This document shows, one piece after another, positions 3-30,755 of a stretch of 44,913 nucleotides of DNA (the stretch's first letter is position 1; every line of letters starts with the position of its first letter). Under the pieces are notes generated by a model. It made no database searches. It was not told the DNA's origin and saw only the letters and a program-made list of their open reading frames with translations. This DNA comes from an uncultured Methanosarcinales archaeon (GTDB lineage: Archaea > Nanobdellota > Nanobdellia > Woesearchaeales > SKGA01): the NCBI GenBank assembly GCA_964517565.1, contig CAZFEG010000002.1, positions 1 to 44,913 of the forward strand. The letters run 5' to 3'. Position numbers and translations under genes: made by a program.

Positions 3-1523
3 ACTATAACAAATTTTATTACTGGCGAGGAAGAGTTAATTAATGAGATAATTATTTCAAAAATAGAAAAAATCTTAACTCTTTCTTTAGATGAACAAGA
101 AATAAGTTTAACATCTTTTTTTAAAGAGAATTTTCCAGATATATCTATTAATTCTTTTTTTGAAAAACATTTTCCTAAAAAAAAAGCTCCTTCTGTTCGC
201 GTTTCCATAATTAAATCTTTCGAGAAGAAGCCTCAAAAAAGAACCATTCAAGATTTTGTTAAGCATTTTAATTTAAGATTTAAATTTCTTGAGCAATTAT
301 TAAAATCTCGTTCAGAATTATCTTCTTTAACTTCTATCAGTCGGTTGAAATCAAAAAAACCAAAAGAACGTGTTTCAGTTATAGGTATGATCTCTGAGAT
401 TAATTTAACAAAAAATGGTCATTATATTTTATTAGTTGAAGATCTTTCTGGAACTACTAAAGTTCTTATTCATAAAAATAATGCTGAATTAGTTATTGAG
501 GCCGAATCTCTTGTTCTTGATGAGGTTATTGGTATTGTTGGTTCTACTGGTAATGATATTGTTTTTTCTGAAACAATCATTCATCCAGATATTCCTTTAA
601 GTAAGGAATTAAAAAAATCTCCTTACGATAATTATGCTTTATTTTTCGGTGATATTCATTATGGTTCTAAAGAATTTTTAAAAAAAGAATTTATTCGTAT
701 GCTTTCATGGATTAATGGTAAAACAGGAACTATGGATCAAAGAAAAATTGCGAAAAAAGTAAAATACATTTTTTTAACTGGTGATGTGGTTGAGGGTGTT
801 GGTATTTATCCAAGTCAAGAAAATGATTTAGAAATTTTAGATATTCGTTCTCAATATGATTCTTTTGCAAAATATTTAGAGAAAATACCTTCCCACATTA
901 AAATAATTATTTGTCCAGGAAATCATGATGTTGGTCGTATTGCTGAACCTCAACTTCCTATTGATAAAGATTATGCAAAAGCTATATGGGCTTTACCAAA
1001 TGTAATAATGGTTTCAAATCCTGCTTATATTAGTGTTGATGTTTCTGATGATTTTCCTGGTATTGATGTTCTTATGTATCATGGTTATTCTCTTATTCAT
1101 TATGCTGATCAAGTTCCTGTACTTAGAAATCATGGTGGACAAAAAGTTGCTGACGAAATTATGGAGTTTTTATTAAAACGTAGACATCTTGCTCCAACTC
1201 ATGGTTCTGCATTGTATATTCCTGATGTTGTTGAAGATGGTTTACTTATAGATCCTATTCCTGATATTTTTGTCACAGGTCACATTCACCGCGCTCAATC
1301 AAGAGTATATCGTAACATCACTTGTATTAATAGTTCTGGTTGGACTGCTATTACTGATGATCAAGAAAAGAGAGGTTTAGAACCACAACCTGGAAGAATT
1401 TTTGTTGTTTCTCTTAAAACTCGCGAAGTTAAGATTCTTAATTTTTCTACAACCAAAGATGTTGGTTCTGTTGTTGAACGTAAGCGCTTACAAGCTCAAA
1501 GTCGCGCTAAGGTGAAAAGTTAA
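3..1523 (+). CDS. DNA polymerase II (PolD) small subunit DP1, 5'-partial. The frame is open back to the window edge, and the track start at 345 is an internal TTG.
   Basis: I translated frame 3 by hand from position 3 to 345 and found no stop. An OB-fold-like segment (VSVIGMISEINLTKNGHYILLVEDLSG) is followed by calcineurin/Mre11-type phosphoesterase motifs FFGDIHYGS, FLTGDVVEGVG, ICPGNHD, MYHGYS and FVTGHIHR, as is typical of DP1. Confidence 0.9.
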   Translation, partial: TITNFITGEEELINEIIISKIEKILTLSLDEQEISLTSFFKENFPDISINSFFEKHFPKKKAPSVRVSIIKSFEKKPQKRTIQDFVKHFNLRFKFLEQLLKSRSELSSLTSISRLKSKKPKERVSVIGMISEINLTKNGHYILLVEDLSGTTKVLIHKNNAELVIEAESLVLDEVIGIVGSTGNDIVFSETIIHPDIPLSKELKKSPYDNYALFFGDIHYGSKEFLKKEFIRMLSWINGKTGTMDQRKIAKKVKYIFLTGDVVEGVGIYPSQENDLEILDIRSQYDSFAKYLEKIPSHIKIIICPGNHDVGRIAEPQLPIDKDYAKAIWALPNVIMVSNPAYISVDVSDDFPGIDVLMYHGYSLIHYADQVPVLRNHGGQKVADEIMEFLLKRRHLAPTHGSALYIPDVVEDGLLIDPIPDIFVTGHIHRAQSRVYRNITCINSSGWTAITDDQEKRGLEPQPGRIFVVSLKTREVKILNFSTTKDVGSVVERKRLQAQSRAKVKS

Positions 1524-27988: not shown

Positions 27989-28038
27989 GTGAGTCTCACT
28001 TCTTCTCTTTCACTACGAAAGTAGTAGTAGGTGTAAAT

Positions 28039-28721: not shown

Positions 28722-29177
28722 TTATTTCTCGATACTTAAATAAACGAATTCTTCATTATTAATAATTATTTTTTCTATTTTCCTTTCTTTCTTAAGTTCT
28801 TGAACATATCTATAGAATGTTGCTTTCGAGCAATACTTTCTTCGATCAACAAATTCTTTTTTTAATTCTTTAAGTGCGAGGTTAGTTGTAGAAATTTGAA
28901 GCATTATTTCTTGTAGTATAATCTCTTTTTTGTGTCTCACTGCTTGTTGAGGTAATCTCACAGTCTCAATGAGTTCTGTAATTTCTTCTTCATTGTCTTC
29001 AATGATTGTTGTCTCAAAAGGACTAATTCCTTCAAATTCTTGTGTTTGAACTGTTCTGCTTTCTTCTTTAAGTCTCTGAAGAAGTTCTTCGAGCCGATTA
29101 ATGAGTATTTTTACCTCATTAACTCCTTTTCTTTCTCTATTTTCTTTGCTTTTTTCGTATTTGAACAGATCTTTCAC
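28722..29177 (-). CDS. Hypothetical protein with a C-terminal winged-helix-like DNA-binding region (151 aa)
   Basis: The C-terminus YCSKATFYRYVQELKKERKIEKIIINNEEFVYLSI resembles an HTH recognition helix plus wing. The N-terminal half is a charged coiled region. Confidence 0.5.
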   Translation of the reverse strand: MKDLFKYEKSKENRERKGVNEVKILINRLEELLQRLKEESRTVQTQEFEGISPFETTIIEDNEEEITELIETVRLPQQAVRHKKEIILQEIMLQISTTNLALKELKKEFVDRRKYCSKATFYRYVQELKKERKIEKIIINNEEFVYLSIEK

Positions 29178-29242
29178 AATAGATTAGAATTATCCTTTAA
29201 ATTATAAGGTTTTTTCTATTTTCCAACAAAAACTCTTGTTTT

Positions 29243-29381
29243 TGAGACTGTCTCAGTTAGTCTCAGAGACGCTACCTGAGACTCCATTCAGTCTCACAAG
29301 CCTTCTACCCTTAATCTCCATAGGAAACAAGGGGGTGTCTCAACCTGAGACTGTCTCACCAAGAGACTATTTGTTGAGACT
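29243..29381. repeat. Array of 11 GAGAC/GTCTC pentamers. It includes two copies of the 13-bp palindrome TGAGACTGTCTCA and one GTCTCAGAGAC.
   Basis: I counted the copies by hand. They start at 29244, 29250, 29260, 29266, 29278, 29291, 29337, 29347, 29353, 29363 and 29376. Confidence 0.9.
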
Positions 29382-29535
29382 AACCTTCATTTCCTCTTTT
29401 TGTAAGCTCTTTTACTTTCACTGGACACCCACTCATAAGCTATTTAAACGTCCCAAATATTCTTACTATTAATGGATCACCCCCTCATAATAAGTTTATG
29501 AGTGAAATAAAAAGGGAAACCAAGGAGGTATAACC

Positions 29536-29814
29536 ATGGAACAAATAAACGTAGATAAGAACACACCCGAAAAGAAATTTCGAGCAAGTCCCCTTACAGC
29601 AACTGTTTGGGCAAACGAAGTACAAACAAAAGAAGGCGAAACAAGAATGTACAGAACAGTTAGTCTTGAACGCTCATACAAGGACAAAGAAGGTTCTTGG
29701 AAATCAACAAATTCTCTAAGAATAAGCGATTTACCTAAAGCAACTCTTCTTTTAAACAAGGTTTTCGAGTACGTCAGCTTTAAAGATGAACCAGATTTGA
29801 TTGGAGAAGAGTGA
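29536..29814 (+). CDS. Small conserved-looking protein (92 aa), possibly a PC4/YdbC-like ssDNA-binding fold, co-transcribed with radA
   Basis: A strong SD (AAGGAGGT) lies 7 nt before the ATG. The segment RSYKDKEGSWKSTNSLRISDLPKATLLLNKVFEYV resembles the PC4 pattern REYW.D.EG...G.KGISL....W..L. The stop lies 5 nt before the radA ATG. Confidence 0.6.
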   Translation: MEQINVDKNTPEKKFRASPLTATVWANEVQTKEGETRMYRTVSLERSYKDKEGSWKSTNSLRISDLPKATLLLNKVFEYVSFKDEPDLIGEE

Positions 29815-29819
29815 TTCTT

Positions 29820-30755
29820 ATGACTAAAGAATTAGGAATACAAGATTTACCAGGCGTGGGTGCAGCAACTGCAGACAAGCTGATTTCAGGCGGTTTTGAT
29901 AACTTAATGGCTATTGCTGTCGCAACCCCTGGAGAGCTAGTAGATGCATCAGGAGTTACAGAAACAGCTGCTAGAAAGATGATTCAAGGAGCGAGATCTT
30001 CTATGGATATGGGTTTTCAAACAGGTGATGATCTACTTGTTAAACGCAGTAAAGTAATAAAATTAAAACTAGGAAGCGAAGGCTTTGATGCTATGCTTGG
30101 GGGAGGCTTCGAAACAGGTGCAATAACTGAATGTTTTGGACAGTATGGAAGTTCAAAAACACAAATAGCGCATATTCTTTGTGTAAATGTTCAATTACAA
30201 GAAGAAGGTGCTATTGCTGTCTATATTGATACTGAGAATACTTTCCGTCCTGAACGTATTATGCAAATAGCAGAAGGCGTGGGTTTAGATCCTGCGAAAG
30301 TTCTTAAAAACATTCGTGTTGCAAGAGCTTTTAACTCAGATCATCAGATGCTTTTAGCAGAAAAAGTTGAAGACTTAATTAAAGGCGGCGATGCTGTTCG
30401 ATTAGTTGTTGTTGATTCTTTAACTGCGCATTTCCGTGCAGAGTTTGTTGGTCGAGGAACGCTTGCAGAACGCCAACAAAAAATAAACAAACACATGCAC
30501 GTGCTCGCAAAGATCGCAGACATTCATAATATTTGCGTATATGTAACTAATCAGGTAATGTCAAAGCCAGATGCATTCTTTGGTGATCCAACTGAAGCAA
30601 TTGGTGGTCATATTGTTGCTCACAACAGCACTTTTAGAATATATTTGAGGAAAGGTAAAAAAGGTACGCGAGTTGGAAAACTTGTTGATAGTCCTAATCT
30701 CCCTGATGCAGAGTGCATATATCAAGTTCTTACTGAAGGTATTCGTGATGTTTAA
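29820..30755 (+). CDS. radA: DNA repair and recombination protein RadA
   Basis: The N-terminal HhH is LPGVGAATADKLISGGF. Walker A is GQYGSSKTQ and Walker B is LVVVDSLTAHFR. The GGHIVAHNSTFRIYLRKG motif is present. Confidence 0.95.
   Translation: MTKELGIQDLPGVGAATADKLISGGFDNLMAIAVATPGELVDASGVTETAARKMIQGARSSMDMGFQTGDDLLVKRSKVIKLKLGSEGFDAMLGGGFETGAITECFGQYGSSKTQIAHILCVNVQLQEEGAIAVYIDTENTFRPERIMQIAEGVGLDPAKVLKNIRVARAFNSDHQMLLAEKVEDLIKGGDAVRLVVVDSLTAHFRAEFVGRGTLAERQQKINKHMHVLAKIADIHNICVYVTNQVMSKPDAFFGDPTEAIGGHIVAHNSTFRIYLRKGKKGTRVGKLVDSPNLPDAECIYQVLTEGIRDV

Follow-up and report, generated by a model that had tools for sequence, protein, structure and literature searches.

A stretch of 44,913 nucleotides (nt) from contig CAZFEG010000002.1 of an archaeal genome (assembly GCA_964517565.1; hereafter the window) carries a short open reading frame (ORF) immediately ahead of the recombinase gene radA, and this arrangement raises the question of what the small protein, here named p92, does beside the recombinase and how its synthesis is controlled. 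The window has a GC content of ~33% and belongs to a DPANN assembly of 1.09 Mb that is 88% complete; its relatives are labelled Woesearchaeota, Nanoarchaeota or Nanobdellota. The original prediction, made from the DNA letters alone, described, as a candidate DNA-damage/recombination module, a bicistron of radA with a gene for a PC4/YdbC-like single-stranded DNA (ssDNA)-binding protein of 92 amino acids (aa), divergent from a gene for a 151-aa protein (here p151), with an array of GAGAC repeats and a 7-bp hairpin in between; the positions given for all five elements were confirmed. Our results favour, at a probability of roughly 0.55, a reading in which p92 is a small nucleic-acid-binding partner of RadA whose synthesis is gated by a structured leader RNA, the likeliest effector being p92 itself. 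The genes form a block (p151 gene, a spacer of 358 nt, p92 and radA) placed between rpl14e and pelota:

28722-29177, minus strand: p151 gene, a 151-aa ORF predicted to carry a long helix at its N-terminus and a winged-helix domain at its C-terminus, joined by an acidic disordered linker.
29536-29814, plus strand: p92, a 92-aa ORF from an uncharacterised family of small proteins, with an acidic tail following a predicted beta4-alpha core (core isoelectric point (pI) 9.7).
29820-30755, plus strand: radA recombinase gene, from NCBIfam and Pfam profile matches.

The downstream gene is RadA by every profile applied to it. Its product matches the NCBIfam models NF003301 (449.3 bits, cut-off 259) and TIGR02236 (448.7 bits, cut-off 361), both over the full length, as well as Pfam Rad51 (E 6.9e-86) and HHH_5 (E 2.3e-9), which together describe an ATPase core and an N-terminal HhH domain. 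The p92 gene is preceded by the Shine-Dalgarno (SD) sequence GGAGGT at 29524-29529, 6 nt ahead of its ATG, and its TGA stop (29812-29814) is followed 5 nt later by the radA ATG at 29820.

p92 is a genuine conserved gene. A word-indexed search returned 163 close homologues, all of them unnamed or hypothetical and free of Pfam domains; when 1.84 billion cluster representatives were searched with a profile, 4304 matched at E <= 1e-3, of which 1272 reached E <= 1e-10. Within the GTDB collection, 390 species genomes encode relatives, and in an even sample of the phylum p92 was carried by 103 of the 121 genomes and 84 of the 97 genera, nearly always as a single copy. In about 13 of the sampled genomes radA lies away from a contig edge and yet no p92 was detectable; p92 is common in the phylum, not universal. 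Neither p92 nor its relatives had a meaningful match in Pfam, NCBIfam or PHROG, and literature searches returned no description of either the protein or the leader RNA introduced below. Longer or fused forms amount to only three rare proteins, whose extensions are uninformative. p92 represents an undescribed small-protein family of the Nanoarchaeota, comprising the Woesearchaeota and sister orders.

The linkage of this gene to radA, predicted from the single locus, was borne out wherever it was checked. radA lies directly downstream of p92 on the same strand in 80/80 fetched loci and, judged by coordinates, in 19/19 genomes from other orders of the class, which hold the 19 weakest family members and include intein-bearing radA genes; this makes 99/99 loci across orders. 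The neighbours rpl34e, rpl14e and pelota are common to the nine closest loci only, and elsewhere the surroundings of p92-radA differ. Because the order is kept while the surrounding genes change, p92 seems to have a functional tie to RadA itself. As for the bicistron, the adjacency and the 5-nt gap hold in the window, but tight coupling is not general: the gap varies, with a median of 97 nt and values of <= 20 nt in 11/80 loci, and the 5-nt coupling is consequently a trait of close relatives only. A small gene kept beside the recombinase over long distances recalls bacterial recA-recX and archaeal RadA paralogues such as RadB, although p92 shares no sequence relationship with RecX or the RadA paralogues and lies upstream of the recombinase rather than downstream.

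Several features of the radA genes and their surroundings were observed along the way. The Walker A motif of the window's RadA (residues 110-114; 30147-30161) reads GSSKT instead of the usual GSGKT; since 10/34 aligned relatives carry the same change, it is a tolerated clade variant. In several genomes of other orders (G062, G073, G074, G078, G121), radA occupies open frames of 732-1393 aa in which the RadA match falls into pieces, indicating inteins in the recombinase gene; one such frame lies at L108 1413-3611. In the family with a second leader copy (below), the gene string that holds leader-p92-radA also encodes, three genes ahead of p92, an RPA-like protein of 325 aa (OB fold and DUF2240; L106 3775-4749, genome G115).

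We next consider what kind of protein p92 is. Its invariant residues in the alignment are P11, K14, F15, W25, N27, R46, W55, D65 and P67, a set that includes the aromatics F15, W25 and W55 and the basic K14 and R46; Y48, K49, D50 and K51 are near-invariant. The core is basic (pI 9.7), and the C-terminal tails vary, being either acidic with hydrophobic tips (EEI, EEEIIM) or ending in EQDLFKGG-like sequences; such tails appear to resemble those of SSB-type proteins. An AlphaFold2 model built from 59 sequences (mean predicted local distance difference test score (pLDDT) 84, 56 residues >= 90, core pLDDT > 90) contains four long antiparallel strands (E10-17, E20-30, E36-49 and E55-58) followed by a 21-residue helix (H63-83). 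In the model, this order of strands and helix fits the PC4/Pur-alpha/Whirly topology class. PC4/Sub1, YdbC (DUF2128) and the PUR repeat are likewise small, with four antiparallel strands and a helix and with conserved aromatic and basic residues on the strands, and a role of p92 in ssDNA transactions is plausible. YdbC is described as a PC4-like ssDNA binder (PMC3575825).

p92 departs from PC4, YdbC and Pur-alpha in having neither a profile match nor a significant structural match to them. Members of these families are not known to be linked to a recombinase gene. The Pfam PC4 model (PF02229) gave 0 matches at E <= 1 among the 59 p92 members and stayed silent at the p92 locus in six-frame searches of the source genome and 20 relatives, where its weak matches fall in other genes; a p92 profile run against PDB sequences returned only noise, with neither PC4 nor YdbC among it. 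When the model was compared with the PDB by Foldseek, the best match by E-value was Borrelia Pur-alpha (E 0.13, probability 0.54), and PC4 chains appeared at E 0.58-0.9, none of them significant. VIA-align against 48,161 chains placed the unrelated Crl on top (Z 4.6), and in a second look human PURA (Z 4.3 over 55 residues) and Borrelia Pur-alpha (Z 3.0-3.2) came out below it. Foldseek against BFVD gave nothing below E 0.02, with a phage 'P15/SSB' model at E 0.17; an ESM Atlas structure search gave unnamed clusters only, from Nanobdellota and Planctomycetota, and in an ESM Atlas feature search DUF6530 scored 0.76, no better than chance. A complex prediction for RadA and p92 with alignments scored 0.00, which amounts to no verdict and is counted neither way.

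These searches bear on the possibility that p92 is a very divergent true PC4/Sub1/YdbC (or Pur-alpha/Whirly) ssDNA binder that works as a helix-swapped dimer. The beta-beta-beta-beta-alpha order and the strand lengths suit the fold class, and Borrelia Pur-alpha, the PC4 chains, human PURA and the phage 'P15/SSB' model all appear in the structural searches; moreover, if p92 is a helix-swapped dimer, a true PC4 match may stay hidden in a monomer model. Nevertheless, all of these matches fall short of significance; Crl and SIRV1 ORF131, both unrelated, score equally well or better; and the PC4 profile is silent both on the family and on the locus in all 21 genomes, as was the reverse search from p92 into PDB sequences. 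We regard this assignment as unlikely. Of the proposed PC4/YdbC likeness, the beta4-alpha topology of the AlphaFold2 model stands, whereas a profile match is lacking and the structural similarity stays below significance; PC4 membership is unproven.

Apart from p92, weak PC4 matches (~15 bits, model positions 13-51) occur in unrelated ORFs of 150-250 aa at loci L083-L086 (genomes G015, G013, G018 and G019), which could form a separate PC4-like family in these archaea.

How the synthesis of p92 may be controlled is suggested by the sequence ahead of the gene, in which the following elements were distinguished:

29419-29448, plus strand: predicted p92-radA promoter, consisting of CACTGGACA (29419-29427), 13 nt and the TATA box TATTTAAA (29441-29448).
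29477-29534, plus strand: structured 5' leader RNA, from covariance model R1.
~29478-29483 with 29524-29529, plus strand: putative stem P1 of the leader, an anti-SD paired with the SD GGAGGT, from the fitted alignment and single-sequence folds.
29484-29502, plus strand: stem P2, the 7-bp hairpin CTCATAA-TAAGT-TTATGAG, from covariation and RNAalifold.
29502-29513, plus strand: A-rich junction GUGAAAUAAAAA, near-invariant across loci.
29514-29521, plus strand: stem P3, a GG-GAAA-CC mini-hairpin (GNRA), from covariation and RNAalifold.

The putative promoter is shared widely: across the order, most of the 80 loci have CACTGGACA ahead of p92, with a TATA box 12-14 nt further on. The combination of CACTGGACA, a 12-13-nt spacer and a TATA box also recurs at four other promoters of the genome (C42:7298, C43:6152, C43:4436 and C122:1265), ahead of a KilA-N/ORF6N-like gene, a wHTH gene, a LAGLIDADG-like gene and a small ORF, and may be a shared operator or promoter element.

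About 30 nt past the TATA box, the loci share a common layout of a C-rich anti-SD, a variable hairpin, the near-invariant junction UGAAAUAAAA, the mini-hairpin, AA and the SD. With a strict pattern, the junction and the mini-hairpin were found in 69/81 sources; the 2-bp stem of P3 is always complementary and occurs in three forms (GG..CC, GC..GC and CC..GG). The SD pairs with upstream sequence in 68/69 single-sequence folds, and the anti-SD tracks the variants of the SD (ACCUC/GAGGU, CCUCC/GGAGG, YACCC/GGGUG). The covariance model R1, built from ten leaders, matches directly upstream of p92 in 79/81 sources and gives only two weak stray matches in 893 kb. In the alignment fitted to this model, from which all the covariation statistics come, standard base pairs occupy 88.8% of the pair positions compared with 61.5% after shuffling (0/500 shuffles reach 88.8%), and the covariation score is 0.559, compared with 0.172 for shuffled alignments and <= 0.10 when the pairing partners are slid. 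Double changes occur at all 15 modelled pairs, all 8 modelled P2 pairs show compensatory changes, and in P3, where pairing holds in 100% of cases, 30 changes are double and none is single-sided. RNAalifold independently recovers P2 and P3, not P1. The stems P2 and P3 are firm, and masking of the SD by P1 is probable from the sequence comparison. Compensatory changes, the position in the 5' untranslated region and the involvement of the ribosome-binding site together point to a structured cis-regulatory leader. The hairpin of the original prediction held up as stem P2, and comparison across loci places it within a phylum-wide structured leader RNA that is new here.

The leader is single-copy in the source genome and in most relatives, lies upstream of p92 in 13/19 genomes from other orders, and is absent before radA in 13/13 genomes that have radA and no detectable p92. 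No Rfam family reached the gathering threshold in the window, and only noise (E > 3) was found on the leader in the window and at L063. In one genome (G073), a tandem pair of leaders precedes p92 (L108 1022-1081 and 1112-1173). In one family, a second copy stands before an unrelated ORF of 348-351 aa inserted just upstream of p92 (L106 2881-2947, genome G115; L107 2858-2916, genome G102); the 348-aa ORF matches no known family and has no similarity to p92.

A conserved, covarying 5' leader whose closing helix would include the ribosome-binding site is reminiscent of SD-sequestering riboswitches and of ribosomal-protein leaders, from which the p92 leader differs in lacking an Rfam family match and in being archaeal; in archaea, few cis-regulatory RNAs are known. 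This raises the alternative that the leader is a metabolite- or ion-sensing riboswitch and that p92 has a function independent of the RNA. The compact three-way junction, the invariant junction sequence, the GNRA loop and the SD-containing closing helix would all suit a riboswitch, and both the tandem copies in one genome and the second copy before an unrelated gene are riboswitch-typical. In contrast, autoregulatory leaders more typically show the pattern seen here, with one copy per genome that nearly always stands before the same gene family; the leader is missing wherever p92 is; and the aptamer core would span only ~55-65 nt, with short helices. On balance, we consider such a riboswitch less probable than the reading we prefer.

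The reading we prefer can be set out as follows. p92 would be a nucleic-acid-binding accessory of RadA, probably an ssDNA-binding mediator or an SSB-like factor. It would be transcribed from the conserved promoter into an mRNA that starts with the three-way-junction leader, the outer helix of which would pair with the SD. Opening and closing of this helix would probably switch the translation of p92, together with that of radA where the two genes are coupled. The likeliest candidate for the switch is feedback by p92 itself, and the alternative to it is a small ligand. Established here are the conservation and linkage of the genes, the covariation of the RNA, the winged-helix fold of p151 and its joint occurrence with the GAGAC array; ssDNA binding, an effect on RadA, the way the leader regulates and the binders of the array and of the ORB-like site (below) are inferred. 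The closest parallels are T4 gp32 and bacterial SSB, which bind ssDNA and end in acidic tails; gp32 represses its own mRNA via the leader. p92 is like them in its basic core and acidic, hydrophobic-tipped tail, in the structured leader before its own gene and in being encoded with recombination machinery; it is unlike them in that its model lacks the OB fold of gp32 and SSB, and in that autoregulation of p92 is a hypothesis.

Several observations weigh against this reading. No sequence or structure search ties p92 to a known nucleic-acid-binding family. P1, the stem on which the switch would depend, is backed by the model-fitted alignment and single-sequence folds and is missed by RNAalifold, and the window's own leader is no more stable than shuffled sequence (z = -0.38). 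The second leader copy before the 348-aa ORF is not predicted by a strictly p92-specific feedback. The p92-radA gap is frequently 100-300 nt, and many lineages may transcribe radA separately. Finally, we considered p92 as a substitute for a missing SSB, given that canonical SSB (PF00436) was not found in the source genome, and rejected it: the genome encodes canonical RPA subunits, RPA-type OB proteins of 380 aa (Rep_fac-A_C and OB fold) and 220 aa (OB fold).

Some of these points would equally suit a p92 that mainly binds RNA to regulate translation of the radA operon, or a housekeeping protein unrelated to recombination, with the adjacency reflecting shared regulation only. The leader and p92 co-occur, and the leader does not stand before radA in genomes that lack p92; with RPA present there is no SSB gap to fill; and some lineages retain radA without a detectable p92. 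The order p92-radA is nonetheless kept in 99/99 loci while the surroundings change, and we consider a purely regulatory or housekeeping role improbable. The rival readings are not all mutually exclusive.

A more specific form of the RadA-partner reading is that p92 and its leader together act as an ssDNA sensor, providing a LexA-free, SOS-like response in these genome-reduced DPANN archaea. Free p92 would bind the A-rich junction and keep the SD in P1; ssDNA from damage or stalled forks would titrate p92, unmask the SD and raise p92 and RadA together. Such a circuit would be analogous to the autoregulation of T4 gp32, but with protein fold and RNA motif both new. We put it forward as a speculative idea that is unlikely to be correct.

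RadA/Rad51 recombinases need mediators, and the archaeal mediator set is poorly defined. Standing beside radA across a genome-reduced phylum, p92 is a strong candidate for a missing RadA accessory factor. The leader would join the short archaeal list of structured cis-regulatory RNAs and would give a direct handle on the control of recombination without known damage regulators.

In the genus of the source genome, a second layer, made up of p151, the GAGAC array and one ORB-like (origin recognition box-like) site, was inserted between rpl14e and p92, and is probably an extra, recently acquired level of control. Its two DNA elements are these:

29243-29381, no strand assigned: GAGAC/GTCTC array of 11 sites with two TGAGACTGTCTCA palindromes, candidate operator array of p151.
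29317-29340, plus strand: ORB-like element TCCA-YA-GGAAA-YAA-GGGGG (dyad, TCCA-TA-GGAAA in the window, and G-string), from a pattern search, in the middle of the array.

The AlphaFold2 model of p151 has a helix at residues 3-47, a low-confidence stretch at 44-78 and an H-H-H-beta-beta arrangement over 81-147 (H81-97, H102-112, H118-130, E134-139 and E142-147; pLDDT 86-94). Nearly all of its top 50 Foldseek matches are winged-helix regulators, mostly at probability 0.98-1.0 and E ~0.01, with Fur, SSV1 F-93, HlyU, PadR and MarR as the top neighbours, and a weak Pfam FUR match was found as well. The C-terminal 70 residues superpose on the Fur N-domain, ArsR/HlyU, PadR and SSV1 F-93 (for F-93, root-mean-square deviation 1.5-2.6 A over 60-67 columns). 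The coiled N-terminal half and wHTH-like C-terminus proposed for the 151-aa protein are thereby borne out, as a long N-terminal helix and a winged-helix C-terminal domain in the model. p151 differs from these regulators in having no metal-binding or effector domain, in its long N-terminal helix and acidic linker, and in being confined to one genus-level clade.

The array predicted between the p151 gene and p92 proved to be unique in the genome. Its 11 sites (29244-29380) lie within 133 nt, compared with a genome mean of 0.79 per kb and only 4 in the next densest 150-nt window, a density far above chance, and the 13-nt palindrome TGAGACNGTCTCA occurs in the genome only at the array, twice. p151 has 12 detectable relatives, and among the fetched loci its gene is present only in the eight closest (L001-L008), all of which carry 8-11 GAGAC/GTCTC sites upstream of p92; the other 72 loci have no p151 and <= 3 sites each. 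The ninth locus (L009) has neither the p151 gene nor the array and keeps the promoter, the leader and p92-radA. Because gene and array co-occur, p151 is the likely binder of the array, and probably binds the GAGAC sites.

Further GAGAC sites were seen nearby. Four lie at 28934-29076 inside the p151 gene, all on the p151 coding strand, and form the second densest cluster of the genome; relatives likewise carry such sites within the p151 gene, and they may be extra autoregulatory operators. A GTCTCA-containing palindrome at 27989-27999, with a GAGAC site at 27993-27997, abuts the TATA box of rpl34e.

The ORB-like site in the middle of the array had been overlooked in the original prediction. Both the dyad and the G-string are present, and the multiple ORBs of an origin are not. 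The pattern has a single match in the source genome and occurs 0-3 times per related genome, whereas the reversed control gave 0 matches in the former and never matched in the latter. Close relatives (at least 8 genomes of the genus) have the site at the same position. In three other genera (G016, G017 and G019), the motif is found 125-195 nt ahead of orc1/cdc6; in the source genus it stands at the radA locus, ~29 kb from orc1. Its TTCCA-NN-GGAAA dyad followed by a G-string resembles archaeal ORBs, specifically ORB1 of P. furiosus (PMC1904270). The element at 29317-29340 is a probable recognition site for Orc1/Cdc6, and the inserted module gives a hint of Orc1/Cdc6 acting at the radA promoter. 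Unlike origin ORBs, the site is single, distant from orc1, without an AT-rich unwinding element and embedded in a promoter-region repeat array.

The spacer between p151 and p92 could also be read as a replication origin, in which Orc1/Cdc6 would bind the ORB, the GAGAC repeats would serve as iterons and p151 would be an origin binder. The single canonical ORB-like site, kept in at least 8 genomes of the genus that have no full ORB next to orc1, and the dense repeats on both sides of it would suit such a role. Yet the spacer, at 57-65% AT, holds a single ORB and lacks an AT-rich unwinding region; a genome of the same genus (G008) has an 88% AT stretch with a degenerate ORB upstream of orc1 (C1 57800-58520, L096); the cumulative GC-skew minimum lies ~18 kb away on a relative's 132-kb contig; and L009, which lacks the whole module, keeps p92-radA. 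An origin in the spacer is very unlikely. The AT-rich stretch upstream of orc1 in G008 is a likelier position for the chromosomal origin.

The main orc1/cdc6 gene is present in all relatives (~430 bits, NCBIfam) and missing from the 88% complete source assembly, where Pfam Cdc6_C likewise gave no match. Synteny would place it just beyond the start of the contig, at a distance of ~29 kb from the ORB-like site. The contig opens with the gene for the PolD small subunit (window 3-1523), with Metallophos, DNA_pol_E_B and an OB fold.

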